Of a stretch of 64,000 nucleotides of DNA, positions 6,053 to 46,391 are shown piece by piece. Position 1 is the first letter of the stretch. The number at the start of each line of letters is the position of its first letter. A program made the translations under genes and the position numbers. The notes beneath the pieces are model-generated. The model did not search any database and was not told the origin of the DNA. It was given only the letters and a program-made list of their open reading frames with translations. The DNA is from an uncultured archaeon (lineage in GTDB: Archaea > EX4484-52 > JAADEF01), in NCBI GenBank assembly GCA_964407715.1, contig CAYOWP010000001.1:1-64000 (forward strand), in the 5' to 3' direction.

Positions 6053-6107
6053 AAATATTTTTAGTGATAGAGAATTATATATATGTTAAGGGGTCAAGCA
6101 AAGGATA

Positions 6108-6223
6108 GGCATTGTCCAATAATCCCTTATTAATAGAATTTTGTTAAGCGGAAAAGTAACCTCTTAAAGAAGCACATCAGAGCAGCAAATCCTGTAGAGC
6201 TAATGCAATTATTGGCCAATGCC
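6108..6223. mobile_element. MITE-like element, copy 1
   Basis: TIRs GGCATTGTCCAATAAT / ATTATTGGCCAATGCC; perfect 9-bp direct flank CAAAGGATA at 6099-6107 and 6224-6232. Confidence 0.85.
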
Positions 6224-6234
6224 CAAAGGATAGT

Positions 6235-6672
6235 TATAGGGTTTAGCCTCTTCATCAGGCATCTCACAGCATTCCACTTTAAAGGCCACCATGCTGCACT
6301 ATGCTAAGAAACAAGATATTTTCCCGTTAACCAATTATTTTAAAATAATGGTTAACGGAAGGAAATTCATTTCACACAGCATATTGCGACATGGTGGCCT
6401 TTTTTGAAGGTTAGCTGCTGTCCAACGGGTTTTTATATGTTACCATACTTCAAGACCTTTCGTAATAAGGATTTCTTCCTGTTAACCATATTTTATTTTT
6501 AAGATAACATGGTTAACGGGAGGAAATCGCTATCATAAGCGCATTGCAGCATGCTAACCTCTCCAAAAGGTTAGCTGCTTCTTAACCGCTTTAGAAAGGT
6601 TAGCTGCTTCGATATGCTGAATAATGAGGTTATGTTTTCCGTTAACCATTTACAAAAAACATTAGGGCAGCT
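6235..6672. repeat. Palindromic-unit array (about 3 units)
   Basis: One degenerate unit ending at 6333, then units 6349-6488 and 6510-6648 bounded by TGGTTAAC/GTTAACCA with inner TAACC-N9/10-GGTTAG. Confidence 0.88.
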
Positions 6673-6736
6673 AATATCATTACAGAGCTTTGTAAGATTG
6701 AAATTTTTTAAATTTTTATAGTGGAAGCATTTTTAT

Positions 6737-7606
6737 ATGAAATCAAGAGGTTTAGAGCTGTATATAAAGGATTATGCGAATCTTCTTAGAAAGATATCAA
6801 AATTTGCGAAGCATCCTGAGAAACTATACATAATTACAGATTTTGATAGAACACTAACGTATACTTGCATAAATAACAAAAAGATACCTTCTTTGATATC
6901 TGTTCTTAGAGATCCAAAATTTGGAATACTTGGTGAAGATTATATTAGAAGAGCACATGAGTTATTCAATAAATATCATCCATACGAGCATGATCCTTCA
7001 TTGAATATTGAAGAGAAAAATAGTTTGATGCAAAGATGGTGGAGGGAGCATTACTCTTTACTCATAGAGAAAGGATTAAGAAGACAAGATATTGATAAGG
7101 CAGTATCGTATTTTAAAGGTAAATTGCGTGAATATGTTAAGGAATTTTTTAGAGTTGCACATGAATATAAAGTTCCTATTATTATAATTTCATCTTGTGG
7201 TCTTGGAAGCTATGCTGTACATAAATACTTAGATGTGCATGGAATCAATTATGATAATGTGTATGTTATAAGCAATGAATTGGAATGGGATTCCAATGGA
7301 AAGATGGTTGGATGGAAAGAACCATTAATAACAGGCTTTTCAAAATATCTTATCAACCTTAAAGAATTTCGCGATATTTATGAAGTAATAAAGGATAAAG
7401 ATTACGGGTTAGTTTTTGGTGATAATGAGGATGATTATATTGTTGGAAAGAACAATTCACGTGATATGATAGCAATAGGATTTGTAATGAGAGATGTTCA
7501 GAATTTTGATATATTAGCTGAGGAATATAATGCCTTAATCACGAATGATGGAGATTTCAGTTTTGCATTTGATGTATTTAAAAGGATAATAAAGCAACCT
7601 TTTTAA
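6737..7606 (+). CDS. HAD-superfamily pyrimidine 5'-nucleotidase (cN-III/UMPH-1-like)
   Basis: Motif I DFDRTLT, MQRWW segment, VISNELEWD and motif IV GDNEDD, as in NT5C3-type enzymes. Confidence 0.8.
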   Translation: MKSRGLELYIKDYANLLRKISKFAKHPEKLYIITDFDRTLTYTCINNKKIPSLISVLRDPKFGILGEDYIRRAHELFNKYHPYEHDPSLNIEEKNSLMQRWWREHYSLLIEKGLRRQDIDKAVSYFKGKLREYVKEFFRVAHEYKVPIIIISSCGLGSYAVHKYLDVHGINYDNVYVISNELEWDSNGKMVGWKEPLITGFSKYLINLKEFRDIYEVIKDKDYGLVFGDNEDDYIVGKNNSRDMIAIGFVMRDVQNFDILAEEYNALITNDGDFSFAFDVFKRIIKQPF

Positions 7607-7640
7607 ATTAATACACGCCTTTAACACATATGGTGGTACA

Positions 7641-8219
7641 ATGAACACATTTGAAAAAATCAAGGAGTTAAAAGTGAAAGATGTGATGGATGAGAAATTT
7701 GTGATTAATGGAGTTAAGGATACAATAATAGATGTCTCAAGAGACATAACCAACTTAGGTGCATCAGAATCAATAATTGTTGAAGGAGAAGGAAATGTAA
7801 AGGGCATTGTTACTTTGAGAGATATTGTTTCTGCAATAGGAAAGGGCATATCTCCAAAAGAGCATATTGAGATAATTATGACTAAAAATGTTATTGTGGC
7901 CTATGAGGATGATCCTTTAGAGGATGCACTACTAAAAATGGCGAAATATAACATCTCCAGACTTCCTGTTTTAAATAATAAAAAAGAGGTTATTGGGGTG
8001 CTTGGCGAAAAGAAATTATTGAAAGTAATTCCAGCTTTATATGAATTGCTACAAGAAAACTTGATGGAAGAAAGACAAGACATAAGCTCACAGCCATCTA
8101 ATGAAGAGTCCATTACAAGGGAAGGAATATGTGAGAACTGTGAGCAGTATTCTGAGGAATTAATAAATGTTGATGGCAAATGGCTATGTAAAGAATGTTA
8201 TAAAGAAATCTATGGTTAG
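7641..8219 (+). CDS. CBS-domain protein with C-terminal zinc ribbon
   Basis: Tandem CBS motifs (GIVTLRDI, ISRLPV) and C-terminal CENC...LCKEC. Confidence 0.88.
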   Translation: MNTFEKIKELKVKDVMDEKFVINGVKDTIIDVSRDITNLGASESIIVEGEGNVKGIVTLRDIVSAIGKGISPKEHIEIIMTKNVIVAYEDDPLEDALLKMAKYNISRLPVLNNKKEVIGVLGEKKLLKVIPALYELLQENLMEERQDISSQPSNEESITREGICENCEQYSEELINVDGKWLCKECYKEIYG

Positions 8220-10165: not shown

Positions 10166-10226
10166 AAAATTAAGATATCATTATTTTAGTTAGATTTTTA
10201 AATATTTGCATATAGAAAACAAAACT

Positions 10227-10383
10227 GGCATTGTCCAATAATTCTTTATTGTTAAGCGGAAATTTAACGCGCAAATAGCACTTATAGCGGTAATTGCATT
10301 AGCTCTATAAGGTTTGCTACTTTAATGCGCTTCTTTAAGAGCTATTTTTCCGCTTAACAAATAGAAAATTATTGGACAATGCC
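10227..10383. mobile_element. MITE-like element, copy 2 (perfect TIRs, no visible TSD)
   Basis: GGCATTGTCCAATAATT...AATTATTGGACAATGCC with subterminal TTGTTAAGCGGAAA/TTTCCGCTTAACAA. Confidence 0.85.
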
Positions 10384-16032: not shown

Positions 16033-17009
16033 TGGTTAACGGGAAGCATAGCCTTTTCATTTTGCGTATGGAAGCAGATAACCCTTAAAAAAGGTTAGAA
16101 TGCTATAATATGCTTGTGATAGGATATCCCTCCCGTTAACCATGTTTTATTTTAAAATAAAACATGGTTAACGGGAAGCATGGCCATTATCTCCACCATC
16201 TTGGAGCAGGTAACCCTTAAAAAAGGTTAGCATGCTGTGATGTGCTTTGGGAAAAGGAATTTCTCGCGTTAACCAAATTAAGAATGGTTAAGGGGAAGCA
16301 TAGCCATATCCAGAGCATATCAGAGCAGCTAACCATTGATAGAGGTTAGCATGCTGTAATATGATTGTGAGAGGGATTTCCTCCCGTTAACCATTTTTTA
16401 AAATAACTGGTTAAGTGGAAGCATAACCATTCATTTTGCGTATCACAGCATCTAACCTCTTCAAGAGGTTAGAGAGTACCTAACCTTTTGTAAAGGGTTA
16501 GCATGCTGCAATGTGGTTTGATAAGGGATTTCTTCCCGTTAACCATTTCATTTGATAAATAAAAATTGGTTAACTGGAAGCATACTTTCTTAAGAAAGCA
16601 CATTGGAGCAGCTAACCTTTTCAAGAGGTTACCATGCTGCAATGTGGTTGTGAAAGGAATTTCCTCCCGTTAACCATATTTTATCTTAAAATAACTGGTT
16701 AAGGGGAAGCATAGCCATTCATTCGGCGTATCACAGCATCTAACCTTTTCAAGAGGTTAGAGAGCATCTAACCTTTTAAAATGGTTACCATGCTGCAATG
16801 TGGTTTGATAAGAGTTTTCCCCTTAACCAGTTATTTTAAAAAATGGTTAACGGGAAGCGTAGCCTCTCAAGAGAGCATATCAAAGCAGCTAACTTTTCTA
16901 AGCGGTTGAGAAGCACCTATCCTTTTGAAGTGGTTACAATGCTGTGAGGTGGTTTGAAAAAGCATTTTTCCGTTAACCAAATTTTCAAAATACATTATTG
17001 GGCAAAATC
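16033..17009. repeat. Palindromic-unit array (7 tandem units) ending in a degenerate MITE terminus
   Basis: Units 16033-16142, 16165-16275, 16285-16393, 16408-16545, 16567-16676, 16696-16829 and 16844-16979; ATTATTGGGCAAAATC at 16994-17009. Confidence 0.95.
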
Positions 17010-23752: not shown

Positions 23753-24367
23753 TCTTGATAAAGAGTTTGTTAACGCAATAAGAATTTCTCCACCTATCAA
23801 CCTCTTTATAATGTTACCATGCTACGATATGCTCTCTAGAGGAGGTATATTTTGCGTTAACTAAATTTTTATTTAAAAAATCTGGTTAACGCAAGAAATC
23901 GCTTTCCAATGCACATAGCAGCATGCTAACCGCTTTCAATGGTTAGCTGCTTCAATATGTTTTCTTGATGATATGCAGTTCTCCTTAACCAAATTTTCAA
24001 AAATAAAAAATGGTTAACGGGAAGCATAACCATCACTAAAAGGTTTGCAGCATTCTAACCTCTATCAATGGTTAGCTGCTGTGATGTGCTGAATGAATAG
24101 GTTATGCTTCCCCTTAACCATTTTAAAAAATAATAAGATATGGTTAACGCGAGGAAATCCCTCTCATAAAAGGTTTGCAGCATGCTAACCTCTTGAAAAG
24201 GTTAGCTGCTTCCATACGCAAAATGAAAAGGTTATTTTTCCCCTTAACCATTTTATTTTATTTAAAAAATCTGGTTAACGCGAGGAAATCGCTTTTACAA
24301 CCATATTGCTTTAAAATGGGTTAGCATGCTCCAAGGTGCTTGTGGAAGCGATTTTCTTCCGTAACCA
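23742..24367. repeat. Palindromic-unit array (5 units, mostly reverse orientation)
   Basis: Degenerate terminus TGTGCCAATAAT, then units starting near 23768, 23883, 24011, 24141 and 24272. Confidence 0.93.
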
Positions 24368-24380
24368 ATTAACAAATTCA

Positions 24381-24469
24381 GGCATTGTCCAATAATTCTT
24401 TATTGTTAAGCGGAAATTTAACGCGCAAATAGCACTTTTTTTGTTAATAGAGAATTATCGGACAATGCC
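24381..24469. mobile_element. MITE-like element, copy 3 (internally deleted, 89 bp)
   Basis: TIRs GGCATTGTCCAATAAT / ATTATCGGACAATGCC; flanks ACAAATTCA and ACCAATTCA (8/9 match). Confidence 0.85.
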
Positions 24470-24516
24470 ACCAATTCAGTTAATTAAAATGTATTTTTAA
24501 ATTTTACTTTTTTATA

Positions 24517-26918: not shown

Positions 26919-26920
26919 TT

Positions 26921-28671: not shown

Positions 28672-28832
28672 AGTATGCTCAATAATTCTTTATGGTTAAG
28701 CGGAAAGTATACCTTATCAATAGCACATCAAAGCAGCCAACACTCTTGAAAAAGGTTAGCATACTGCAAAACTTTAGGTAAAGATATGATTTCTGTTAAC
28801 CAAATTTTTAAAATACGTTATTGGACAAAACT
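28672..28832. repeat. Single palindromic unit with degenerate MITE termini
   Basis: AGTATGCTCAATAATTCTTTATGGTTAAGCGG...GGTTAGCATACTG...GTTAACCA...TTATTGGACAAAACT. Confidence 0.8.
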
Positions 28833-28991
28833 GGAATTGTCAAAAAATTTTTGATGAAGGTCTGTTAACAAGAAAACTTATTCTTGCAATCGCATTAGCT
28901 CTCTAAGGTTTGCTTTCTCTAATACGCTTCTTTAAAAGGTTACTTTTCCGCTTAACAAAATTTTGTTAATAGAGAATTATTGGACAATGCC
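28833..28991. mobile_element. MITE-like element, copy 4
   Basis: GGAATTGTC...ATTATTGGACAATGCC; perfect 9-bp flank GACAAAACT at 28824-28832 and 28992-29000. Confidence 0.87.
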
Positions 28992-29046
28992 GACAAAACT
29001 GGCTTTTCATAAAAATATATAACTATGTGTGAAATAAATTATTAAT

Positions 29047-29639: not shown

Positions 29640-29714
29640 GGGACCGTGGGGTAGCCTGGACTAGCCTTCCACCTTGGGGTGGTGGCGACCCGCGTTCAAA
29701 TCGCGGCGGTCCCA
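29640..29714 (+). tRNA. tRNA-Pro(GGG)
   Basis: Acceptor GGGACCG/CGGTCCC-A, anticodon arm CCACC-TTGGGGT-GGTGG, T arm CCGCG-TTCAAAT-CGCGG; CCA is not encoded. Confidence 0.95.
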
Positions 29715-29851
29715 TCATTCGAATTTGTGAAATTTTTATCTAAAGAGCAATCGATTTATTTTTGTTTTAATGAAATCTATCCTCAATCTTCTTTGATAGA
29801 TCAATAGACCCTTTCATTTTGCAATATCTTCAACTAAAGCAAATAAAATTT

Positions 29852-31246: not shown

Positions 31247-31281
31247 ATATTTTTATAGAGGTTAAAGTGGTATATATAGGT

Positions 31282-32487: not shown

Positions 32488-32532
32488 AAAAGTAAATTTT
32501 ATATTGAATTAATTTTTTAAAAAGACACAAAA

Positions 32533-32814
32533 TGGATAGGTTATGTTTTCCGTTAACCATTTTTAAAATAATTGGTTAACGGGAAGCATAACCTATCCAA
32601 AGCATATTGCAGCAAGGTATCCTTTCAAAAAGGTTAGCTGCTTCAGTCTGCTGGATAAAAGGGTTATGTTTTCCGTTAACCAAATTTTTATTTTAATGAA
32701 AAATGGTTAACGGGAGGAAATCGCTTTCTCAAGGCACATTAGAGCATGCTAACCCTCTACAAAAGGTTAGCTACTTCAATACGCCAAATGAAAGGGTTAT
32801 ACTTCCCGTTAACC
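32533..32814. repeat. Palindromic-unit array (2 units plus a partial)
   Basis: Units 32573-32682 and 32704-32814, with a partial arm upstream. Confidence 0.9.
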
Positions 32815-32875
32815 GATTATTTTGCATAAATAAAAAATAGAAAAATTTTTTAATTTATGTGAGAAAGGAAGATTT

Positions 32876-34192: not shown

Positions 34193-34820
34193 AGAATCTT
34201 CTTAAGAACTCCTCCATAAATCTATACCTTTCCTGAGCCATCTCTTTTGCAGTAGGTGTGTTCATCAAATCCTTGAGTTTTAATAGTTTCTCATAGAAAT
34301 GATTGATACTTGTGGATTTGGCTTTCTTGTATTCCTCAAATGATTTGAATTCCTTTGGATGTATATCAGGATCATATATTGCTCTACCTAATTTACCTCC
34401 TGTAGCAAAGCATCTTGCTATGCCTATTGCACCCATTGCATCTAATCTATCTGCATCTTGAACTATTTTTCCTTCCTTTGAGGATGGAACACTTTTACCA
34501 GTGCCTCTAAATGAGATGTCCTTTATGATCTCAAGAACCTTTTGTGTTGTTTCCTTATCAACGCCAAATTTTTTTAGTATCTTGCGTGCATTTTTCAACT
34601 CTTTGCTTTTTTCATTTAATTTCCAATCATCTAAGTCATGCAAAAGAGCTGCCAATTGCAGAACTCTTAAGTTTACATTTCCTTCTTTTTCAGCAATCTT
34701 CAAGGATAGTTTCCATACCCTATAGATATGCCACCAATCATGACCGCTACTTTCATTATAGGTTATTTTCTTTATGTGTTCAGCTATCTCATTGATAAGA
34801 GAATCGTTGCTGAGCTTCAT
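34173..34820 (-). CDS. HD-domain phosphohydrolase
   Basis: GHDWWHIYRV, LLHD and VQDADRLDAMGAIG; start placed at MKLSND. Confidence 0.92.
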   Translation of the reverse strand: MKLSNDSLINEIAEHIKKITYNESSGHDWWHIYRVWKLSLKIAEKEGNVNLRVLQLAALLHDLDDWKLNEKSKELKNARKILKKFGVDKETTQKVLEIIKDISFRGTGKSVPSSKEGKIVQDADRLDAMGAIGIARCFATGGKLGRAIYDPDIHPKEFKSFEEYKKAKSTSINHFYEKLLKLKDLMNTPTAKEMAQERYRFMEEFLRRFFNEWNV

Positions 34821-34879
34821 AAAAACAAAAATAAGAGAGGATAAATTTAAAAACTTTACTAAATTATATCTACTTATAG

Positions 34880-35119
34880 GTGGTTGCAGTGGAGAATAAA
34901 GAGAGATTATCAAGAGCATTAATGTTTGAATTTGAGAAGATAGATTCAAATGAAGGAATAGTAAAGGAACTTATGATAGTTGAGAATCCGTTAGCGGGAA
35001 GTTTTAAGGTAAGTAATGGAGAGATTACAGCATACATTTATATGCACAATAAAACTGTAGAGGTCTTTGTGATAGACGAGAATGGAAACATAAAGAATAA
35101 AGAAATTTCCTTAGAGTAA
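34880..35119 (+). CDS. Small hypothetical protein
   Basis: 79-aa ORF filling the gap between flanking genes. Confidence 0.5.
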   Translation: MVAVENKERLSRALMFEFEKIDSNEGIVKELMIVENPLAGSFKVSNGEITAYIYMHNKTVEVFVIDENGNIKNKEISLE

Positions 35120-35125
35120 AAAGAT

Positions 35126-35329
35126 TCAACCTCTTGATGCTATTCTAAAAATTTTTATTTCATCCTCATCATTTATTAAATCTTCATCAGTTACTATCTT
35201 ATTATTTCTTTTCACTATCACTTCTTCAGGATTAATGCCGAGGTTTAAAAGTAGTTCTTTGAGTTTTATTTTCTTTTCTATCTTTATTTTATCAATGCCT
35301 TTTTTATAATTATAGGATATCTTTACCAT
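35126..35329 (-). CDS. ThiS/MoaD/SAMP-family ubiquitin-like protein
   Basis: LLLNLGINPEEVIVKRN...DEDEIKIFRIASRG beta-grasp pattern. Confidence 0.8.
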   Translation of the reverse strand: MVKISYNYKKGIDKIKIEKKIKLKELLLNLGINPEEVIVKRNNKIVTDEDLINDEDEIKIFRIASRG

Positions 35330-35373
35330 GACTTTATTTAACAAACTTAAGATTTTAAATATGTTGACCTTAT

Positions 35374-35495
35374 AGTATTGAGCAGCAAACTTTGTTAACG
35401 GGAAGCATAGCTTTATACAAAGGGTTAACTGCTCTCATACACTTCTTTGAGAGGTTATGTTTCCGCTTAACAATAAAGAATTATTGGACAATGCC
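35374..35495. mobile_element. MITE-like element, copy 5
   Basis: Perfect right TIR ATTATTGGACAATGCC and degenerate left end; direct flank TGACCTTAT at 35365-35373 and 35496-35504. Confidence 0.83.
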
Positions 35496-35549
35496 TGACC
35501 TTATATAACTGCAGAAACTTATTTAAATATGGTATATTTTATTCCTTAT

Positions 35550-36788
35550 ATGCATACAAAAACTAAGGAAGATCTAAAGGAAATTGATTTACCTGTGATG
35601 AATATAGGCATAGTAGGGCATGTGGATCATGGAAAAACAACTCTTACACAGATGCTTACAGGAAAGTTCACTGATGAACATAGCGAGGAGTTAAAGAGAG
35701 GGATATCAATAAGATTAGGATATGCTGATTTAAAAATAAAAAGATGTCCAAAATGCGGGACATATACTACATTGGATATATGCTTCAATGATAACACTCC
35801 AACACAACTATTGAGAACATATTCTATAATTGATGTACCTGGACACGAGACATTGATAGCTACAGTATTAACAGGAACAGCCCTGATAGATGCTGCTATC
35901 TTAGTAATAGCAGCAAATGAGCCATGTCCTCAACCACAAACAGAAGAGCATTTAACAGCATTAGAAATTGCTGGCATTGACAAAATAATCATTGTACAAA
36001 ATAAAATAGATTTAGTAACAAAGCAACAAGCAATTGAACATTACAAACAGATAAAGGAATTTATAAAAGGCACAATTGCAGAGAATGCTCCTATTATTCC
36101 TGTATCAGCTCATCACAATACCAACTTAGAAGTCCTTTTGGAGTACATTTATAATCTCTTTGTTCCTCCAAAGAGAGATGAAACCTTATCACCAATAATG
36201 TATGTTGCGAGGAGCTTTGATGTCAATAAACCCGGAACAAGAATAAAGGATTTGGTTGGAGGTGTATTAGGTGGTGCTATAAGGCAGGGAATATTTAAGA
36301 TTGGTGATGAAATAAAGATACTTCCCGGTATAAAGAAAGGAGAAAGGTTTATGCCTGTATATACAAAGATAGAGAATATGATGCAGTCTAATAGGAAAAT
36401 AAAAATAGCGAGACCAGGCGGCTTGATAGCTATTTCCACTCTTTTGGATCCTTATTTTACAAAGGGAGATAGTATGGTTGGAAATATAGTGGTCAAGAAA
36501 GATAATGAGGAAGTAGAGGTATATGAGGTGTTACGAGTTAAATATACTCTTATTGAAAGAATTATAGAAAATGAAAGAAAGAAAATTGTTGAGGATATCA
36601 ATGTAAATGATGTGATTTTAATAAACATAGGAACAGCAAGAACCATTGGGATATGCACAAAAAAAGAAAGGGACGTTATTGAATTAAAACTGAAATTGCC
36701 TATTGCAGCTTTTAAGGGAGATAGATGCGTATTATCAATGCAAGTAGATGGTAGGTGGAGATTAATAGGCTATGGAGAGGTGGTGTAG
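35550..36788 (+). CDS. eif2g: Translation initiation factor 2 gamma subunit
   Basis: GHVDHGKTT, RGISIRLGY, DVPGHE, PQPQT, NKID and RWRLIGYG. Confidence 0.97.
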   Translation: MHTKTKEDLKEIDLPVMNIGIVGHVDHGKTTLTQMLTGKFTDEHSEELKRGISIRLGYADLKIKRCPKCGTYTTLDICFNDNTPTQLLRTYSIIDVPGHETLIATVLTGTALIDAAILVIAANEPCPQPQTEEHLTALEIAGIDKIIIVQNKIDLVTKQQAIEHYKQIKEFIKGTIAENAPIIPVSAHHNTNLEVLLEYIYNLFVPPKRDETLSPIMYVARSFDVNKPGTRIKDLVGGVLGGAIRQGIFKIGDEIKILPGIKKGERFMPVYTKIENMMQSNRKIKIARPGGLIAISTLLDPYFTKGDSMVGNIVVKKDNEEVEVYEVLRVKYTLIERIIENERKKIVEDINVNDVILINIGTARTIGICTKKERDVIELKLKLPIAAFKGDRCVLSMQVDGRWRLIGYGEVV

Positions 36789-36789
36789 A

Positions 36790-37134
36790 ATGGCAGAGAA
36801 GCAATTTGATAAATTAAAGAATCATTATTGTGAATCTTTTATTAAGGATATTGATGATACATTCCTTAGATGCAGGATATTGGGAAAAATTATAGAGATT
36901 AAAGATGTCTCTCTTATTATTGATGATGGTACAGGTATTATTGAGGTTATATTTAATGAGGACATAACCAAGAATCGAACATCTTTTGAGGTTGGTAAAG
37001 ATGTGTTAATTTTTGGTAAGGTGATAAATATAGATAATCAATATAAGATATTTGCTGATATAATAAGGGATGTTGATGATTTGAGTTTAAAGCATTATCG
37101 TAAGATTGTTAAGATATGGAAAGACTTTGTTTAA
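36790..37134 (+). CDS. OB-fold protein (RPA small-subunit-like)
   Basis: IIDDGTGIIEV and VLIFGKV OB-fold pattern. Confidence 0.7.
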   Translation: MAEKQFDKLKNHYCESFIKDIDDTFLRCRILGKIIEIKDVSLIIDDGTGIIEVIFNEDITKNRTSFEVGKDVLIFGKVINIDNQYKIFADIIRDVDDLSLKHYRKIVKIWKDFV

Positions 37135-37165
37135 AATATTAGAAGTGTTTTCTTGGTGTTAGGCT

Positions 37166-37702
37166 ATGAGGATTGCAGTATGTGGATTATCATCTTCAGG
37201 GAAATCTACATTGGCAAAAAGAATAGCAAAAGAATTTAACCTTGAGCTGTATTCCTCTGGTGAAATTTTTAGGGAAATTGCTAAACAGAGAGGCTTGAGG
37301 TTGGAGGAATTGAGCAAAGCAACCGAGAAGGAAATAGATATAGAAATAGATGAAAAAACAAAAAGAATATGCAAAGAAAAAGATAATTTTGTTATTGAAG
37401 GAAGATTACCATGTTTTTTTTGTAAAGATTCCTTTAAGATATATTTACATGCTCCTTTGAATGTAAGAGTTAGAAGATGTGCCTTAAGGGATGGAATATT
37501 GTATGAAGATGCCTTAAAATTGGTTGAGGAGAGAGATATGAATGATTTGAGAAGATATAAGATTCTGTACGGAATAGATGACTATGACAAAACAATGAAG
37601 GAAATTGCTGATTTGGTTATAGATACTGAGCGCTATTCCATAGAGGAGATGTGCTCTTTAGCGTTTGAAGCTATAAGAGAGCATATCTCATTTAATCCTT
37701 AA
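37166..37702 (+). CDS. cmk: Cytidylate kinase, archaeal type
   Basis: GLSSSGKST, SSGEIFREIA, EGRL and RRYKILYGID. Confidence 0.9.
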   Translation: MRIAVCGLSSSGKSTLAKRIAKEFNLELYSSGEIFREIAKQRGLRLEELSKATEKEIDIEIDEKTKRICKEKDNFVIEGRLPCFFCKDSFKIYLHAPLNVRVRRCALRDGILYEDALKLVEERDMNDLRRYKILYGIDDYDKTMKEIADLVIDTERYSIEEMCSLAFEAIREHISFNP

Positions 37703-38243
37703 TTGGCTTAACATGTCTTAATGTAGTGATATACCATATCATTATTACTATGAAGGAATTAAGAATTGCTAAAAGGATGTGGTCGTATATTCTATAAAAT
37801 TGTGCATTTGTCATCATTACCAATATTAAAGCAAGAGAAATTCTGCAGATGTTTATGAATAAAGCAAGAAAGGGAGAGATAGCAAGCAAGACAATTTTTC
37901 TTTTGATGGAGACATTTGGAGTGGCTAATATTAAAGCAAAGAGAAATGCAAATGTTTTGAAACCTATGCATTCCTTTGTAATTGAGATGTATAACCCTTG
38001 GTCGTGCATTTGTAATGTGTTACCTAATCTTTCCAAATTGAATATATACGATAGTATAAGAGCTTCATATATCTGGAAATTATAAAAGTCATGCTTATAA
38101 TAAATCCAAAACATAAAAGAAAGCGAAGAAAACAGGATTATTGAGAATTTAAATAATGCAAGTAGCTTTTTATTTCTTATGTTGTTAACCTGCAATCCCC
38201 TCTTCGCTTTTCTTTTCATCTTTAACTCCTTCTTGCGTTTCAT
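37692..38243 (-). CDS. Archaeosortase/exosortase-family protein
   Basis: Membrane protein with ECIG (catalytic Cys), NICRI (Arg) and a downstream His. Confidence 0.75.
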   Translation of the reverse strand: MKRKKELKMKRKAKRGLQVNNIRNKKLLALFKFSIILFSSLSFMFWIYYKHDFYNFQIYEALILSYIFNLERLGNTLQMHDQGLYISITKECIGFKTFAFLFALILATPNVSIKRKIVLLAISPFLALFINICRISLALILVMMTNAQFYRIYDHILLAILNSFIVIMIWYITTLRHVKPIKD

Positions 38244-38362
38244 TTACTAAAGACTCTATATCAAGTTTCTCTTCTTTTTTGCTTTTTTTCTTTACTATCA
38301 CCATAAAATCCCCTATTATCTTATATGTTTGTGGTTATATATATAATTTAAAGTAAAAATTT

Positions 38363-38862
38363 TGGTTAACAGGAAAAATCCATTTTACAACCACATTGCA
38401 GCGTGATAACCTTTTTATTTTTGGTTATCTGCTTTGCAATGAGCTTTTTAGCAGATCCTGTTTCCTGTTAACCATTTTTGTTTTGGTTAACGGGAAACAT
38501 ACCTTATCGAGAAACCACATTACAGCATCTAACCATTCTAAAGAGGTTAGCATGCTGTAATTTGGCTTTGAAAAGCGATCTCTTCCCGTTAACCATTTTT
38601 GTTTTGGTTAACAGGAAACATACCTTATCGAGAAACCACATTACAGCAGCTAACCCTTTAAAGCGGTTAGCATGCTGTAATGTGCCTCGGAAAAGTGATT
38701 CTCTCCCGTTAACCAATTTTTATTATTTTTTAAATTGGTTAACTGGAAACATACCTTTTTCATTTGAGGTATTAGAGCAGCTAACCTTTCACTTGGGTTA
38801 GCATGCCGCAAGAGCTTTATGATAGCGATTTCTTCCCGTTAACCATTTATCTGCGTTAACCA
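38363..38862. repeat. Palindromic-unit array (4 units)
   Basis: Units start near 38363, 38484, 38605 and 38736; the second and third share a near-identical left half. Confidence 0.93.
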
Positions 38863-38946
38863 TTATCTTTAAAATAAATCAAGAGATTGTTTCAGAGAAG
38901 CAGAGATATTGTGGTATCAAAGAAATTTGTGTAAATATGAAGAGAA

Positions 38947-39891
38947 TCAATACTGTATTTCGCCTTCTTTATGGAGCCTATCAAGAACATTGAACATCAT
39001 CAATGGAAAGAGGATTGTGGCATCTCCTCTAATTGTAATGCTGTCTGCATCACTGCTTATTTTACCCCAGCTCTTACCTTCATTTGTTGTGGCTCCGCTT
39101 AAACTTCCAGAGTACTCGCTTGAAGTTGTGATATATACAGCATAATCAGTTCCGCCATTTATTAATGTAGCAAGAAGAGCATAGTGCTTGCTTACTCCTC
39201 CACCTAATGCAATTAGTCCTTTTTTGTCATCATAAGTTAAATAAGAAATCATCCTACCAAAATCATCTATCACATCCACAATAAAATCTTTATGATCCTG
39301 CTTTAACATAAAAAGGTGAAAGCCAATAGCACCATCTGCAATTGCTGGACAGAAAATGGGCACTTTCTTAAGATATGCCTGCCTAAGTATGCTATTCTTA
39401 TCATTTAATCTTTTTCCTATTTCCCATAATAAATCGCAAGTTGCCATATGTTTTCTTTCTTTATAAATTTCCTCTAAAACCCTATGCATGAACCCTTCAA
39501 GTTTCATATAGGAATCTGTAGTAATATAAAGGTTTCCTATTCTATTATATCCCTTTTCATAAAGATCAATATCATCAGCCTCGAAACGCGTAATATAAAA
39601 TCTTTCACCTATTGCTTTCATAATATCTTCTTCTATGCTTCCTGCTGTGGTAACAACCATATCAACAAAACCTAGGGAAATAAGTTGTGCAAAGAAACCT
39701 CTCAAACCTGTGGTAACAAGGTTAGATGGAAAAGACAAGATTATCTTAGCATTTTCTTTTTTCATTTTATACACTATATCAGCGCCCTTTCCAAGATGTA
39801 TGCTTTGAAATCCTACATTTTTGAGAGATTCAACAAGAGATGATGCTGAGGAATTAGGAGACCAAAGAACATCTTTAACATAATCAGACAT
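38947..39891 (-). CDS. dys: Deoxyhypusine synthase
   Basis: VTTAGSIEEDIMK, NRIGN, GGGVSKH and GSLSGATTNEGKSWGKI. Confidence 0.95.
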   Translation of the reverse strand: MSDYVKDVLWSPNSSASSLVESLKNVGFQSIHLGKGADIVYKMKKENAKIILSFPSNLVTTGLRGFFAQLISLGFVDMVVTTAGSIEEDIMKAIGERFYITRFEADDIDLYEKGYNRIGNLYITTDSYMKLEGFMHRVLEEIYKERKHMATCDLLWEIGKRLNDKNSILRQAYLKKVPIFCPAIADGAIGFHLFMLKQDHKDFIVDVIDDFGRMISYLTYDDKKGLIALGGGVSKHYALLATLINGGTDYAVYITTSSEYSGSLSGATTNEGKSWGKISSDADSITIRGDATILFPLMMFNVLDRLHKEGEIQY

Positions 39892-39960
39892 AAAAATAAT
39901 AAATAGGAAAAAATTTAAAATAGTTGATATAAGTATAATTTAATTTAAAAGGTGCTTAAA

Positions 39961-41139
39961 ATGATGCGACATTATCAGGATAAAAAGAAAATTGCTTTTC
40001 ATTTTGTTCTTCTTATGGGTATTGTTAGCCTCTTTGGAGATATAACATATGAAGGAGCAAGAAGCATCATAGGCCCTTATCTGGCTATATTAGGTGCAAG
40101 CGCTACTGTAGTAGGTTTGGCATCAGGTTTAGGGGAATTTGTTGGATATGGATTACGATTAATTTCTGGTTATATTGCAGACAAAACTAAAATGTATTGG
40201 CTATTCACCGTTATAGGTTATGGATTAATTCTCTCGATACCTTTATTAGCCTTTGCTGGTCATTGGGAGATTGCTGTTCTCCTTATTATCTTAGAACGAA
40301 TGGGAAAAGCCATAAGAACACCTGCCAGAGATGCTATCTTATCACATGTAACAACGCAAATAGGAAGAGGCTTAGGCTTTGGCATTCACGAGGCTTTAGA
40401 TCAAGTTGGTGCTTTCATTGGTCCGCTGGTTTTTTCTGTGCTACTTATGTTGGGTGGTGAATACAGGTATGGATTTATTGCCCTGTTGATACCTGCTATT
40501 TTGACATTGATTTTTCTTATGATAGCAAAAAGTAAAGTACCTTTGCCAGAGAAATTTGAAAGAACTCATAGTACAAAGACCAATAAACTTCCAAAGGTTT
40601 TTTGGTTCTACATGTTGTTCACTATTCTAAGTGTCATAGGATTTGCTAACTTTCCATTGATTTCATATCATCTTAAGGTTCAATCAATTCTTTCAGATTT
40701 CCAGATTCCCATACTCTATGCGATTGCAATGGGCGTAGATGCTTTAATCGCGGTTTTTATAGGCAGGATATACGATAAGATAGGATTGGCATCTTTGATA
40801 ACAATACCTCTATTATCTCTTTTTATTCCTTTCTTTGCTTTTTCTCATAGCTTGACCTTTGCAGTTATAGGAATGATATTATGGGGATCAGCAATGGGCA
40901 TCCAAGAAACAATAATGCGAGCAGCCATCGGAGATATAACGCCAATTGCACATAGAGGGTTTGCATACGGTATATTTAACGCGGCATATGGAGCATCTTT
41001 ATTTGTTGGGAGCACAATTATGGGGTTGCTATATGATGTCTCTATAAAGTATATTATTGTTTTTGTAATTTTTATGGAAATGCTCTCCATATTTGTGTTC
41101 CTCTCACTTAAATGGCAATATAACAAGAGAGCATTTTAA
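39961..41139 (+). CDS. MFS transporter
   Basis: About 12 TM helices; SGYIADKT and ERMGKAIRTPARD. Confidence 0.9.
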   Translation: MMRHYQDKKKIAFHFVLLMGIVSLFGDITYEGARSIIGPYLAILGASATVVGLASGLGEFVGYGLRLISGYIADKTKMYWLFTVIGYGLILSIPLLAFAGHWEIAVLLIILERMGKAIRTPARDAILSHVTTQIGRGLGFGIHEALDQVGAFIGPLVFSVLLMLGGEYRYGFIALLIPAILTLIFLMIAKSKVPLPEKFERTHSTKTNKLPKVFWFYMLFTILSVIGFANFPLISYHLKVQSILSDFQIPILYAIAMGVDALIAVFIGRIYDKIGLASLITIPLLSLFIPFFAFSHSLTFAVIGMILWGSAMGIQETIMRAAIGDITPIAHRGFAYGIFNAAYGASLFVGSTIMGLLYDVSIKYIIVFVIFMEMLSIFVFLSLKWQYNKRAF

Positions 41140-42089
41140 AGTTTTCTTTTTAAAATAACCTGAGTATCTCCCCAACTATAAGCATTAGCAATGAACCCAT
41201 ACTTTTGAAAACCTAATCCTCTATAAAATCTCAGTGCTCTCTCATTTTTGCTTGATGTTTTTGCAACTACAAAATCCTTATTTTTCTTTTTTGCAAGATA
41301 TAAAGCATGCTCAACCATGGCACTTCCAATACCTCTATTCTGATAATCCCTATGTACAGCTAACCATTCAATCTCGATCTCATGTGCTCTTTCAATCAAA
41401 CTCATAAAACCAACTTCTTTTCCTTCATAATAAGCAAAATACATCTCTCCTTTCAATGCTTCTATCTCCTGTTTTGATGGATTATAAAATTTAAAATTTA
41501 TAGAACCACAGTTCTTATGTATTTCAAATGCCTTATTCACATCTCGAGACCTTTTTATTTCTATCTTAGCATGCTTTTTTCTTTTAACTCTCTTAAAATC
41601 AAACACATATTCCATTTTAAGGTTATTTCTCCATCTATTGGAGTATTTTATTTCTCTCTCCTCAAATGCCGAGTATTCAAATCCTACACTTTCATAGCAT
41701 CTTCTAGCCCTAATATTTTCCTCATCTACATCCAAGCATACTTTATAAAATCCTTTTTCTTTTGCTATGTTTATAAGTTTTCTAACAATCTCTTTGCATA
41801 ATCCCTTACCCCAAAATTTCTTTCTTATCCATAATCCTATTTCTGCATATCTTTCCTTAAATCTTATTTCTCCTATGCCTGCAGGTTCACCATTGTAAAG
41901 GATTATTATATTTTTAGATGTCTTCTCCCTCAACTTTTTTCTGATCCATTCTTTTTCATCTTCTATACTGAACTTTTTATTACACAATTTAGCAAAATTC
42001 AAAAGGTGTTCTCTTATTTCTCTATCATTTATCTCTATCAACCACTCCGCATCTTTTACATGTAAATCGCGAAATGATATCTTTTTCAT
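41136..42089 (-). CDS. Tandem GNAT acetyltransferase
   Basis: Two GNAT domains (FWGKGL...NIRARRCYESVGF and YQNRGIG...ALRFYRGLGF). Confidence 0.88.
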   Translation of the reverse strand: MKKISFRDLHVKDAEWLIEINDREIREHLLNFAKLCNKKFSIEDEKEWIRKKLREKTSKNIIILYNGEPAGIGEIRFKERYAEIGLWIRKKFWGKGLCKEIVRKLINIAKEKGFYKVCLDVDEENIRARRCYESVGFEYSAFEEREIKYSNRWRNNLKMEYVFDFKRVKRKKHAKIEIKRSRDVNKAFEIHKNCGSINFKFYNPSKQEIEALKGEMYFAYYEGKEVGFMSLIERAHEIEIEWLAVHRDYQNRGIGSAMVEHALYLAKKKNKDFVVAKTSSKNERALRFYRGLGFQKYGFIANAYSWGDTQVILKRKL

Positions 42090-42178
42090 TTTTATACCTC
42101 TTCAACTCTTATTCTTTAGGGTGACATTAACATCCCTACCCCATTAAGCCACCTCATGCGTAGGCTCAGTGACTATCG

Positions 42179-43507
42179 CTATCCCTTCAATAGCCATTTC
42201 CATAATGGAACAAATCTTATCTTCCCGCGTTTCCTCCGCCACTCCACTTCGCGAGTATCCTCATAATCCCATGTTATCACTGTTAGAGGTACATTATCAC
42301 CAAGCTTTAGTTCTTCTTTAGCATGTAATAAAGCGCGTATCTCTCTTTCAGGTATTTCCTCATAGGAATTTGCATAGCATACCTGCATCAATTCCTTTAT
42401 TTTCATACCTTCCTTAATCAAGAAATCTACCTCATAACCTTCGCGTGTTTCGTAAAAATAATATTCATAGAAAGGATGATTGTTTTGCTGTCTAAGTAAC
42501 TCAACAAATACCAAATTTTCCATTATTCTTTCTTTGCTTAGTTCAAAATTAAAGTAATGTGATAGTCCTAAATCAACAACATAAATCTTCTTTGGCCAAT
42601 TCTTTCTGATATATATTTTCTGAGAATATCTCTCTAAAAAGAAAATACATAATGTATCTTCTATGAGTGATAAATACTCATATAATGTTTTTTTGGATAA
42701 TGGAACTTTTGATTTCAAATAAGATTCCACTTTTGAGATGCTCAATTTTGTTGAATAATTCTGAAAACAAAACTCAAAAAGAAATCTGCTGAGATCTACA
42801 CTTTTAATTTTATGTCTTTCAATAAAATCCTTTAAGAAAATCTCATCAAGGTATGTCTTCAAAATTTTTTTCTTTATTTCTTCTTGATTAGAAATCACAA
42901 CTTCTGGATATCCACCATATTTTATGTATTCTTCTAAAAGTTCAAGTATAGATAACTTTTCTGATAAAGATAAAAAAGGAAACTTCTCTAATAATGATTG
43001 ATCTTTATATTTTATGAATTCTCTAAAACTAAAAGGCAAAAGAAAGTACCATAAAGATCTTCCTCTCAATTGAGTTGCAATTTCTTTGCTTGAAAGTTTA
43101 GAAGATGAGCCAGTAATCACAATGTTATACTCCCTATCAATTAAACTTCTTAAAACAGACTCCCAATCCTTAATCTCTTGAATTTCATCTAATAAGAGTA
43201 AAGAAGGCTCCTTTCCTTTAATTTTTTTAAAAAGAAAGATTATCTCAATTAAGTCCTTAAAACTTATGTTTTTTAAAAACACTTCTTCAAAATTCAAATA
43301 CAATACTTCTTTATCTTTGTATTTATTTAGAAGATAAATCATATAAAAGGTTTTCCCTGCCCTTCTTGGACCAAGCAAAGAAATTATTTTATGTGGTATA
43401 ATTTTTATATTAAGTTCTCTTAATACACCTTCAAATTTTCTTTCTTTTTTTAAATACTCCACGATAATTTCCTTATCTATCATAATATCATATAATGATA
43501 TTTTCAT
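42179..43507 (-). CDS. AAA+ ATPase (AAA_14 / DUF4143-type)
   Basis: GPRRAGKT, LLDEIQ, TGSSS, YGGYP and C-terminal EVDF. Confidence 0.9.
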   Translation of the reverse strand: MKISLYDIMIDKEIIVEYLKKERKFEGVLRELNIKIIPHKIISLLGPRRAGKTFYMIYLLNKYKDKEVLYLNFEEVFLKNISFKDLIEIIFLFKKIKGKEPSLLLLDEIQEIKDWESVLRSLIDREYNIVITGSSSKLSSKEIATQLRGRSLWYFLLPFSFREFIKYKDQSLLEKFPFLSLSEKLSILELLEEYIKYGGYPEVVISNQEEIKKKILKTYLDEIFLKDFIERHKIKSVDLSRFLFEFCFQNYSTKLSISKVESYLKSKVPLSKKTLYEYLSLIEDTLCIFFLERYSQKIYIRKNWPKKIYVVDLGLSHYFNFELSKERIMENLVFVELLRQQNNHPFYEYYFYETREGYEVDFLIKEGMKIKELMQVCYANSYEEIPEREIRALLHAKEELKLGDNVPLTVITWDYEDTREVEWRRKRGKIRFVPLWKWLLKG

Positions 43508-43560
43508 TTTAAAAAGTTTCTTGAGGAAACTATTTTCATAAATTTTAGTTCCCTAAGGGG

Positions 43561-44499
43561 TCAAAAATTTTTACTTTTATGTAATTCAGAAATTTTTTGC
43601 AAATATTTCTTTATCTCTCTTTTATCTTCATAAAATGTAATAGCAAAATATTTATTATCATCCTTTTTTCTAATATAAAATTCTTCATGCTCTTTCTGGA
43701 GGAGAAGAGGAGCATTATATCCTAAGAATAGACTATCCACTAACCAGTTATCAGTTGCTTCATTAGGTTGTGGAGAAAGTTTAATATAAATCTTTGAAAG
43801 ATTTTCAGCTATGTTTTTTACTCCTACAGATTGAACAAATCTCTTTGCAGTACAATAAGCCTTTTCTAATTCTTTTTTATTTTCATGAAGCTTGTAAAAA
43901 TGATATCTAAGCAATTCTAAATGTTCTGGAAACTTTTCTGGTTCAGCACGACAAAGTCCAAGGAAAGCCAATGGTGCAAGAGAAAACTCGAATTTTGAGC
44001 TATTAACAAGATCTCGAAGATAATCTGCTACTCTATACCCCGAAGACATTTCCGATATAATATATAATCCAATAGGGAACAATTCTTTATCTTTTTCTTC
44101 TTTAATAGTATCACAAGTGATACTTTCAACTATAGCGGGAATAGTTTCAACAGCTTTGACTTCAAGAACTAAAAATAACAGGTACTTTAAAATTTTCTTG
44201 GAAAATTTTTCTTCTGGAATGTTGAGAATAGCAATTTTCAGTCCTTCTCTGAATTTTTTCTTTCCTCTATATGACAGCGATTCATAAATACTCTTTAAAA
44301 TTTCTATCATATCTTCATATTTCTGACTTAAGATATATCTTTGTTGAGATGTTCTTAATTCTGTTACCAGCCATTTACTAATTTCTTTGCTATTCATATT
44401 TTCTATCTTCTTTTTTTCTTCTTTAATGATAATATAATCATATATATCCTTAAGCATGCTATTTTGTTTTTTACCTTCAATTTTTTCTTTAAATTCCAT
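43561..44499 (-). CDS. Hypothetical helical protein
   Basis: 312-aa ORF with SD-like GGAGGGAG upstream. Confidence 0.7.
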   Translation of the reverse strand: MEFKEKIEGKKQNSMLKDIYDYIIIKEEKKKIENMNSKEISKWLVTELRTSQQRYILSQKYEDMIEILKSIYESLSYRGKKKFREGLKIAILNIPEEKFSKKILKYLLFLVLEVKAVETIPAIVESITCDTIKEEKDKELFPIGLYIISEMSSGYRVADYLRDLVNSSKFEFSLAPLAFLGLCRAEPEKFPEHLELLRYHFYKLHENKKELEKAYCTAKRFVQSVGVKNIAENLSKIYIKLSPQPNEATDNWLVDSLFLGYNAPLLLQKEHEEFYIRKKDDNKYFAITFYEDKREIKKYLQKISELHKSKNF

Positions 44500-44591
44500 T
44501 TTGTTCTCCCTCCTATCTTCATATTAACAAGTTTTTGATATACTGGAAAACCGTTAAATATATATATAAGTTTGAACTATAATATATTTTA

Positions 44592-44651
44592 CTCTTGGTT
44601 CATTTAGAACCAAGAGGGTTCCCCTAGGAAGGTCCTTTATAGGACCTTCCT
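44592..44651. other. Twin perfect hairpins in a divergent intergenic region
   Basis: CTCTTGGTTC-attta-GAACCAAGAG (44592-44616) and AGGAAGGTCCT-ttat-AGGACCTTCCT (44626-44651). Confidence 0.8.
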
Positions 44652-44707
44652 TTATGCTCTTTCTATTATACAATAATTTTAAAATTTTTAGTCTTATATT
44701 TGACTAT

Positions 44708-45763
44708 ATGAAAAAATTTAAGAGATGTGTACTTTATGAGAAATTGGAAAATAAGAAAGTGAGATGTTTCGCATGTAGGCATAGATGTGTAATCAATGAG
44801 AATCACACAGGTATTTGTGGTGTAAGAGCGAATTTTTCTGGTGATCTCTATCTCATAGTGCATTCTAAACCTTCAGCATATCACATAGATCCCATAGAGA
44901 AAAAACCTTTCTATCACTTTCTACCATCAGAACAAGCATTATCCTTAGGTACAGTAGGATGTAATTTTAGATGTGCATGGTGTCAAAATCATGATTTGAG
45001 CCAAGGAATTAAGGAATACTCTATGTTTAATGCAGAAAAGGCAGTGAAATTTTTAGAGCACAATTCATTTGAAGGTTTAGAACCAGAGAGGATTGTTGAA
45101 GATGCTATTAATTTTGGAGTGAAAATAATAGCATATACATATAATGAGCCTACGATATGGATGGAGTATGCGATAGATATTGCGAAACTTGCGAAAAAGG
45201 AAGGTATAAAAAATGTATTTGTTTCATCAGGATATGAGAGCGAGGAAGGATTAAAGTTTATCTCGCGCTACATAGATGCCTTTAACATTGATCTCAAGGC
45301 ATTTAGAGATGAAACCTACAGGAAATACATAGGAGCAACATTAGATGGTGTGTTAAAAACCATAAAGGAGATAAAGAAAAAAGGAAAATGGTTGGAGATA
45401 ACAACACTTTTGATACCTGATATAAATGATAGCATTGAGGAAATAGAGGAGATAGCAGATTTTATATGTTCAATAGATAAAGATATTCCTTGGCATATAT
45501 CAAGATTTTTTCCACATTATAAGATAACAAACAAACCTCCAACACCAATATCTAAATTAGTAAAAGCAAGAGAAATAGGAATAGAACATGGTTTAAGACA
45601 TGTGTATTTGGGCAATATTATCGATAAAAAATATGAGAGCACATACTGCCCAGAATGCAAGAATATAGTAATAGAGAGAGAGGGATATTTTGTAAAGAAC
45701 TACCTTGATGAAAACGGAAAATGCCCTTATTGTGGTTATAAAATAAAAGGAGTTTGGAAATAA
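44708..45763 (+). CDS. AmmeMemoRadiSam-type radical SAM enzyme
   Basis: N-terminal CFACRHRC...GICGVR, DPIEKKP, CNFRCAWCQN, YTYNEP and C-terminal CxxC pairs. Confidence 0.92.
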   Translation: MKKFKRCVLYEKLENKKVRCFACRHRCVINENHTGICGVRANFSGDLYLIVHSKPSAYHIDPIEKKPFYHFLPSEQALSLGTVGCNFRCAWCQNHDLSQGIKEYSMFNAEKAVKFLEHNSFEGLEPERIVEDAINFGVKIIAYTYNEPTIWMEYAIDIAKLAKKEGIKNVFVSSGYESEEGLKFISRYIDAFNIDLKAFRDETYRKYIGATLDGVLKTIKEIKKKGKWLEITTLLIPDINDSIEEIEEIADFICSIDKDIPWHISRFFPHYKITNKPPTPISKLVKAREIGIEHGLRHVYLGNIIDKKYESTYCPECKNIVIEREGYFVKNYLDENGKCPYCGYKIKGVWK

Positions 45764-45770
45764 AAATCTC

Positions 45771-46172
45771 CTATCTTTTTACTTCCTTTACCACATATAT
45801 ATCTCCTTTTTCATCTCTAGCACCAACTCCAATCGTATCAAGACCGTCTATCACTGGAATATCTTGAAATACCTTTCTAAGAGAAAAGCTACCTGCTGCA
45901 CATCCAAGAGAGACAATAGCATCAATATCTCCTTCTAAGTTTATTTGCTTTTTTATCATATCTATATCGCACATTATTGGAATAACATTTTTGTATGCTA
46001 TATTAAAACCCTCTTTCTTTAAAGCCTCACTAACCTCTTCTAATCCTTTATCTCCACCAGTACCACATATCCTTGCACAAGCGTTACATGCGATTACAGC
46101 AATTCTTTTGGCATTTATTTCCTCTAATTGTGCCTTTATTACGCCGAGAGGTTTTCTGTCGGTTACTATCAT
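45771..46172 (-). CDS. Cys-rich MetV / MTHFR-C-terminal-like protein
   Basis: CNACARICGTGG, MC and GCAAG. Confidence 0.7.
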   Translation of the reverse strand: MIVTDRKPLGVIKAQLEEINAKRIAVIACNACARICGTGGDKGLEEVSEALKKEGFNIAYKNVIPIMCDIDMIKKQINLEGDIDAIVSLGCAAGSFSLRKVFQDIPVIDGLDTIGVGARDEKGDIYVVKEVKR

Positions 46173-46241
46173 AATCTCACCTCACATAATTATTATAAAA
46201 TCTTAAAATTATATATAATTTAATTTTGTTTTTATAGGGTG

Positions 46242-46375
46242 AGCATTGTCCAATAATGTGTTTTGAGAAATTTTGTTAACGGGAAACATAGCTATATTTA
46301 AAGGATTAAACTGCTATAAGTGTTATTTGCGCGTTAAGTTTCCACTTAACAAATGGAGGATTATTGGACAATGCC
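46242..46375. mobile_element. MITE-like element, copy 6
   Basis: AGCATTGTCCAATAAT...ATTATTGGACAATGCC; flanks TATAGGGTG and TATAAGGTG (8/9 match). Confidence 0.85.
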
Positions 46376-46391
46376 TATAAGGTGCAAATTT

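Follow-up and report, generated by a model that had tools for sequence, protein, structure and literature searches.

The window examined here, a stretch of 64,000 nucleotides at the start of contig CAYOWP010000001.1 of an uncultured archaeon, carries six copies of a small, non-coding repeat element, which we interpret as a transposable element of the miniature inverted-repeat type (MITE), together with arrays of a hairpin-forming module to which the interiors of the elements are related. Matches with up to three mismatches to the 16-bp element end, GGCATTGTCCAATAAT, number 11 in the window against 1.06 expected; in 100 dinucleotide-preserving shuffles of the window the maximum was 5, and none (0/100) attained 11. 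These matches delimit all six elements that had been listed in an earlier note made from the letters of the window, and the 9-bp direct repeats reported there around five of the six are likewise present, three of them perfect and two matching at 8/9. The copy at 6108-6223 (116 bp; 6099..6232 with its flanks) lies between perfect 9-bp copies of CAAAGGATA and has one mismatch in its right end; that at 28833-28991 (159 bp; 28824..29000) has three mismatches in its left end and the perfect duplication GACAAAACT; and that at 35374-35495 (122 bp; 35365..35504) has a perfect right end and the perfect duplication TGACCTTAT, its left end being degenerate and in part deleted, yet still abutting the duplication. 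Duplications matching at 8/9 flank the copies at 24381-24469 (89 bp; 24372..24478; ACAAATTCA/ACCAATTCA), which is a derivative with an internal deletion, and at 46242-46375 (134 bp; 46233..46384; TATAGGGTG/TATAAGGTG). The copy at 10227..10383 (157 bp), which falls in a 13-copy size class of 148-181 bp, has two perfect ends and no duplication (AACAAAACT / TAATGGTAG).

The same ends recur throughout the source genome (G000; 898,521 bp in 16 contigs, about 32% G+C, 92% complete). With at most one mismatch GGCATTGTCCAATAAT occurs 91 times, compared with 0 occurrences of the reversed control pattern; with at most three mismatches 146 ends are found, 50 of them perfect 16-mers. A consensus drawn from 98 ends starts with GGC, and agreement with it ranges from 82 to 98 of the 98 ends at each of the 16 positions. 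When each + end was paired with the next - end within 600 bp, 48 two-ended copies were obtained, to which the copy at 35374 was added. The resulting 49 copies span 89-390 bp and have a density of about 55 per Mb (49 in 0.9 Mb).

Target duplication was evaluated over the 49 copies by comparing, in register, L bases to the left of each element with L bases to its right. At a flank length of 9, the flanks of 10/49 copies were perfect matches and those of 22/49 had at most one mismatch; the corresponding counts were 0/49 and 2/49 at length 8 and 2/49 and 4/49 at length 10. Comparison of left flanks with the right flanks of other elements gave expectations of 0.0 perfect matches and 0.02 with at most one mismatch, and flanks displaced 12 bp outward yielded 0 in both classes. 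When the element boundary was allowed to shift by up to 2 bp, 15 copies had perfect duplications, 15 matched at 8/9, 7 at 7/9 and 12 at 6/9 or less. The duplication is real, exactly 9 bp long and different at each locus, and because locus-specific duplications of exactly this length are present, we conclude that the elements were inserted by way of a DDE-type staggered cut. Transposition of this type with a fixed 9-bp duplication had been proposed in the earlier note, which named a chance-level duplication frequency across all copies as the result that would speak against it; the frequency is far above chance (22/49 against about 0, with ends at 91 against 0), and the proposal survives.

Taken together, we consider it likely that the elements form a lineage-specific family of non-autonomous MITEs in a 0.9-Mb genome that we infer to be DPANN-like, that they were mobilized in trans by a DDE transposase, and that they have since been immobile. 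The inserting enzyme cut its target with a 9-bp stagger, and repair left a 9-bp direct repeat that differs from locus to locus. The transposase would have been supplied by an insertion sequence (IS) with the same ends, which may later have been lost or may never have been assembled. The copies themselves are small and have no coding capacity for a transposase, their interiors consisting of hairpin-module sequence.

Single-linkage clustering of full-length relatives gave three main clusters, of 21 copies (247-307 bp), 13 copies (148-181 bp) and 6 copies (133-146 bp), with two pairs and five singletons outside them. The ~250-bp class is a fusion in which a short type, truncated at GTTAAC, is followed by a second type without its first three end bases. 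Good duplications surround several of these fused copies, and the fusion thus moved as one unit. Nearest neighbours share a median of 89.9% and at most 93.2% identity, and there are no recent copies; because no copy exceeds this likeness (about 93%) to another, the family has probably not moved for a long time and is read as an old, probably immobile orphan. None of the 49 copies lies within an open reading frame (ORF) of at least 150 amino acids (aa). MITEs favour gaps that hold gene starts, with 21 copies in divergent, 25 in tandem and 2 in convergent gaps against genome totals of 124, 356 and 121, in an analysis that uses a crude ORF set and gap lengths that contain the elements themselves.

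Immediately to the right of the copy at 28833 (28992-29016) lies a sequence resembling a decayed MITE end, matching at 11/16 by eye. The duplication of the same copy has 8 bases in common with the left flank (10219-10226) of the duplication-less copy at 10227, a sharing that may reflect insertion beside an older end or an exchange of flanks between copies. At the right of the window, the ORF listed at 46353..47375 begins within the MITE at 46242-46375, and an in-frame ATG is located at 46392, 16 nt past the element. This MITE separates a TATA-like stretch from the likely start codon of the ORF, and its insertion may have changed the promoter.

The earlier note had seen no transposase in the window, and none was found across the whole 0.9-Mb assembly either. 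Six-frame profile searches of G000 returned no match to DDE_Tnp_1 (PF01609), DDE_Tnp_1_5 (PF13737), the IS240/IS6-type domain (PF13610, DDE_Tnp_IS240), the IS1595 (PF12762), IS1 (PF03400) or IS256 (PF00872) types, Y1 (PF01797), DDE_3 (PF13358) or rve (PF00665); the TnpB zinc-ribbon model PF07282 gave two sub-threshold matches only. Tblastn searches of the assembly with the transposases of three relatives gave E > 0.5, and none of the multi-copy ORF families of the genome is transposase-like. The search suggested in the earlier note, for the end repeat on both sides of a transposase ORF in the genome, produced no such element: of the + and - ends spaced 400-15000 bp from each other and showing a duplication, no pair has a transposase-like gene between its members. 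The only long pairs with a duplication are a composite on contig C7, described below, and a pair on contig C12 around ordinary genes.

Across all data searched, the family is a lineage-specific orphan. Forty relatives of the same order yielded two single end matches (at most one mismatch), with none in the same-genus genome. Scanning a genome collection with the 16-mer returned at least 105 loci, which among the matches listed are all single matches in unrelated taxa; a second match, with up to three mismatches, is present at five loci among the matches listed. One locus, L078, has the only inverted pair with IS-like spacing among the matches listed and was rejected, as the pair lies inside a gene. 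At 6 loci among the matches listed a non-ORF 16-mer stands beside an ORF, and no transposase is among these ORFs. A metagenome scan with the end plus GTTAA gave 3 loci, of which one is on a contig 99.77% identical to contig C8 of G000 (the same organism) and the other two (39-46% GC) were rejected as chance matches. Viral contigs gave 0 matches for both patterns. Orphan MITEs are known, and the failure to find an autonomous element therefore lowers the probability that the family is active, not the probability that it is a MITE family.

Transposases of several types are encoded by relatives of G000: the IS903 type (PF13737) in 4/41, the IS6 type (PF13610) in 6/41 and the IS1595 type in 1/41. 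The candidate partners named in the earlier note were IS6, IS1595 and IS256, a list that omitted the IS903 group of the IS5 family, which is the best fit to the 9-bp duplication and the GGC tip. IS903-group ends begin with GGC (ISfinder). An IS5/IS903-type element of 1097 bp is present in the relative G011 (L124:1137-2233); its transposase frame is split into 154 + 182 aa, its ends begin GGC/GGT, and its 9-bp duplication matches at 8/9. For the captured Paracoccus elements, the portion of PMC3281130 around Table 2 gives 9-bp repeats in 9/9 IS903-group members and 8- or 9-bp repeats in the IS6 members. We tentatively name an IS5-family element of the IS903 group as the partner, an assignment somewhat short of an even chance. 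Beyond the candidates weighed below, the remainder of the probability goes to other or unknown families.

Somewhat less likely, and best regarded as a possibility, is a partner of the IS6/IS1-like kind found in the relative G009, with the MITEs moved via copy-in cointegrates or translocatable units in the manner of IS26 and with 9-bp instead of 8-bp repeats generated in this clade. The G009 element (963 bp; L131:1120-2082) has a 302-aa frame that scores 39 bits with PF13610, 78.5 with NCBIfam IS6 and 44.7 with NCBIfam IS1, and the N-terminus of the protein faintly suggests zinc binding. Agreement with the MITE consensus is 13/16 for two G009 ends and 11/16, by eye, for a third. In 499 kb of loci the rate of matches with at most three mismatches is 1.1e-5 per position and strand, and because such matches are this rare and the observed one stands exactly at the element tip, it is not attributed to chance. 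In the sections of PMC7986276 that bear on these points, IS6 ends are described as conserving a GG tip together with TGT and A-rich motifs, all of which the MITE consensus carries. The same sections report two IS6 MITEs and passenger segments between direct copies and describe IS6 as widespread in archaea. The G009 element has 24-bp inverted ends, and a diverged, truncated and inverted second copy lies 2.5 kb away (contig C54, up to 54654). This pair suggests a 3.5-kb composite transposon with passenger ORFs, its outer flanks matching at 7/8 over 8 bp. Three more IS6-like homologues (in G040, G035 and G041) have no clear inverted repeats at their ends.

A MITE pair on contig C7 (54162-55078; L110:2163-3079) bears on the same question. 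Here two MITEs in direct orientation enclose a 512-bp segment with a small ORF upstream of a gene for a ParE-family toxin (PF05016, 47.3 bits), an arrangement comparable to the direct IS6/IS26 copies around passenger cassettes. The outer flanks have in common a perfect 8-mer abutting both ends, a 9-mer reading requiring a one-base slip. Both inner junctions bear one and the same directly oriented 9-mer, one tip having one or two additional G. A second cassette, on contig C15 (14144-15152; L111), is 78% identical and retains the same inner junctions between unrelated outer flanks. The order flank a, element, flank b, cassette, flank b, element, flank a is the mark of a copy-in cointegrate or of the integration of a circle that carried one element and the cassette; the identity of the inner flanks argues against two independent insertions. 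From these two loci, the ParE passenger unit was probably moved by a cointegrate-type route, as would be expected with an IS6-like partner. This flank pattern is not exclusive to IS6, however, since IS903 makes simple insertions and occasional cointegrates too, and IS1 can also form cointegrates.

Further observations count against an IS6-like partner. IS6 repeats are generally 8 bp long in the sections of PMC7986276 consulted, and the G009 composite likewise has its 7/8 duplication at 8 bp, whereas the MITEs have no perfect flanks of 8 bp and 10 of 9 bp; the exception is the C7 pair, whose outer flanks hold a perfect 8-mer. The G009 transposase, at 78.5 bits, falls below the NCBIfam IS6 cut-off of 125 bits, the link depends on a single element in a single genome, and no PF13610-type transposase was found in G000. 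The end sequence favours an IS6-like partner, whereas duplication length and the GGC tip favour the IS903 group. We rank the IS903-like partner above the IS6/IS1-like one because the 8-bp feature of IS6 fails and no tested feature of the IS903 group does. The proposal of IS6 in the earlier note thus holds in part, for the ends (13/16) and the cointegrate-type flanks, and fails for the 8-bp repeat.

Several points weigh against the reading of an orphan MITE family with an IS903-group partner. Even with a 2-bp boundary shift, the flanks match at 7/9 or less in 19/49 copies, for which decay or recombination between copies is a candidate cause. Searches of the assembly, the 40 relatives and the collections turned up no autonomous element bearing these ends. 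The assembly is 92% complete and repeats often remain unassembled, so the absence of a transposase is not proven. Finally, the IS903-type ends of G011 and G032 match the MITE consensus at only 8-10/16, compared with the 13/16 of the IS6-like G009 ends.

The MITE interiors belong to a larger hairpin-module repeat system that the earlier note had missed. The module measures about 106 nt, or about 134 nt where an additional arm is present; it is bordered by GTTAAC-GGGAAG and its complement and has a conserved apical stem. The 437 non-overlapping pieces located by a profile search, of which 187 approach full length, cover 36.3 kb at 135 loci, a locus count inflated by about 6 through a redundancy between contigs C8 and C9 that affects 0/49 of the two-ended MITEs. 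From about 7 to 51 kb, C8 recurs in reverse complement and with 100% identity as contig C9 (44 kb), probably an assembly or binning redundancy. MITE ends are present on both sides of 37 module loci (all of at most 400 bp) and on one side of 25; the 73 loci with neither make up 27.5 kb, and 34 of them are arrays of more than 400 bp, mostly with all units co-oriented. By BLAST, element-related sequence amounts to 42.2 kb, or 4.7% of the assembly.

In the window, which has eight such module loci, the longest array is a head-to-tail series of seven modules on the + strand (16033..17009), GTTAAC-bounded units of about 106 or 134 nt separated by AT-rich spacers; a degenerate MITE end with 4 mismatches forms its right edge at 16994-17009. 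Three full modules and one partial module on the - strand (23883..24362) adjoin the MITE at 24381, degenerate and partial modules (6242..6646) adjoin that at 6108, and a single + strand module (28693..28802) lies 31 bp to the left of that at 28833. An array of four modules, one - and three +, occupies 38363..38845, and pairs of modules lie at 32573..32815 (-), 47741..47978 (+) and 57168..57405 (-). Modules carry GTTAAC at both ends. This hexamer occurs 591 times in G000, compared with 99-244 occurrences for four other AT-rich palindromic hexamers. GTTAAC is the recognition site of HpaI-type restriction enzymes.

The arrays do not look locally duplicated. Identity is 74% between adjacent units of an array and 70% between units of different loci; just 16/86 modules find their best match within their own array and 70/86 outside it, and only 2/43 adjacent module pairs are collinear with another array. 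Because best matches lie elsewhere and collinearity is rare, we conclude that the arrays did not arise by recent local duplication or by copying of whole arrays; accretion, with single units settling one beside another, appears to have built them. No common termini were found for the arrays and no duplication for the single modules. Folding of the modules gave a mean of -32.6 kcal/mol, compared with -19.3 kcal/mol for shuffled sequences, with no strand bias (73/146). Complementarity between the two arms of one module does not exceed that with arms of other modules (55/111), and the RNAalifold consensus retains only the base and apical stems, with compensatory changes in 2/18 pairs. Since neither a strand bias nor an arm-specific complementarity is present, these results provide no evidence of selection on RNA structure. 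A covariance model of the module, applied to 93 candidates per genome, has at least 93 matches in G000 and 0 in 40 relatives.

An unlikely alternative, though one that these arrays make worth stating, is that the ~106-nt module is itself a mobile unit, inserting head-to-tail in the manner of the hairpins formed by repetitive extragenic palindromes (REPs), known as REPINs, without the REP-associated tyrosine transposase (RAYT), so that the MITEs would be capped units, or that the modules are some 300 small structured RNAs. The roughly 70 intergenic loci are in keeping with such a unit, for which no inverted ends beyond the module palindrome and no target duplication are found. Like REPs and REPINs, the modules are short palindromic hairpin units that lie in intergenic positions singly or in tandem and higher-order clusters, and the part of PMC3116915 on clustering describes REP clusters as arising by insertion into or beside existing copies. 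Unlike REP/REPIN-RAYT systems, the genome is archaeal and has no Y1/RAYT gene, the units are about 106 nt long where REPs are about 20 nt and occur in doublets, and modules are found also inside elements with inverted ends and 9-bp duplications.

Returning to the old, immobile MITE family that we favour, it is improbable that the family is still active, with an autonomous element that sits in the 8% of the genome missing from the assembly, on an extrachromosomal element, or within the cells that host a presumed symbiont. The completeness of 92%, the breaking of assemblies by repeats, seen here in several contigs that end in module arrays, and the perfect state of 50 of the 146 ends would fit such activity. 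Against it, no two copies are more than 93.2% alike, no outward-facing MITE ends are found at contig ends, and the viral contigs hold no match. The fraction of perfect ends is also, by our own arithmetic, about that predicted from a decay of 5% per copy.

An IS1595-family or IS256/Mutator-like partner, the remaining suggestion of the earlier note, is very unlikely. Some IS1595 groups end in GGCnnTG and make 8-bp repeats, and IS256 makes 8-9-bp repeats (ISfinder family table); one IS1595-type ORF is present in 1/41 relatives. Neither family was found in G000 by its profile (PF12762, PF00872), the 8-bp repeats of IS1595 are not seen in the MITE flanks, and no IS1595- or IS256-type end like the MITE end occurs in the loci examined; the suggestion was thus not borne out. 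That the elements are not transposons at all, and are instead structured RNA genes or REP-like regulatory hairpins spread by another route, is hardly credible: their interiors fold into long hairpins, the related modules fold better than shuffled sequence and the elements lie near gene starts, but locus-specific exact 9-bp duplications are the footprint of transposition, no Rfam family at gathering score matches the elements in the window, folding energy has no strand bias, module arms carry no compensatory signal and a Y1/RAYT gene was not found in G000.

The family resembles the MITEs of the IS903 group in its short inverted ends (15-27 bp in that group), GGC tip, fixed 9-bp duplication, small size, non-coding interior and multiple copies. 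It differs from them in the absence of an IS903-type transposase from G000, in an end identity of 8-10/16, and in its hairpin-module interior, which is not known from IS903. The likeness to IS6/IS26 elements lies in the end motifs (GG tip, TGT and A-rich) and the difference in the duplication, of 8 bp there and 9 bp here. As in the archaeal MITEs of Sulfolobus, Halobacterium and Haloquadratum, the elements are non-autonomous and intergenic and have inverted ends. MITEs are an ordinary kind of mobile DNA, and this family may already be included in the list of the census of 8,220 archaeal genomes (PMC11602168), whose consulted portion places the highest archaeal MITE densities in DPANN, at 146 and 105 per Mb. 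A search of the literature for comparable hairpin arrays in DPANN and other archaea gave no relevant description among the papers listed.

Mobile DNA has been thought scarce in reduced symbiont-type genomes. The present family offers a clean case of an orphan family in such a genome, in which the repeat system as a whole accounts for about 4-5% of the sequence. Here the length of the duplication and the sequence of the ends indicate different IS families, which bears on the use of duplication length for assigning MITEs to their partners. The MITE pair around the toxin-antitoxin cassette hints that non-autonomous elements have moved passenger genes in this lineage, and the module arrays, which look accreted and not locally duplicated, remain unexplained.

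Positions 1-190 of the window are the 3' end of an archaeal small-subunit rRNA, truncated by the contig start (RF01959, 181.8 bits). The order to which G000 belongs, which makes up the entire phylum in the collection searched (42 species genomes), has genomes of 0.5-2.2 Mb. One window protein has its nearest protein clusters in Nanobdellota and Aenigmatarchaeota, a lead only. The same-genus genome G001 has only about 65-77% DNA identity to G000 even within genes, and its intergenic sites are not alignable. Parts of the stretch are represented in five public runs, all of them DNA and all as contigs, with no RNA runs listed. Among the contig joints listed for four of these runs in the interval 27000-46999, none exactly skips 28833-28991, 35374-35495 or 46242-46375, in a comparison in which contigs cannot show the absence of an element and, at 90% likeness, copies from elsewhere can align to a MITE; the joints that are listed connect repeat to repeat.

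The multi-copy ORF families of G000 are beta-helix/NosD surface proteins (8 copies), AAA_14/DUF4143 ATPases (6 copies) and Gp53-like_C tail-fibre-like proteins (5 copies). Members of multi-copy gene families are located in the window at 29852-31246 and 42179-43507, with paralogues on other contigs, and several beta-helix genes adjoin MITEs.

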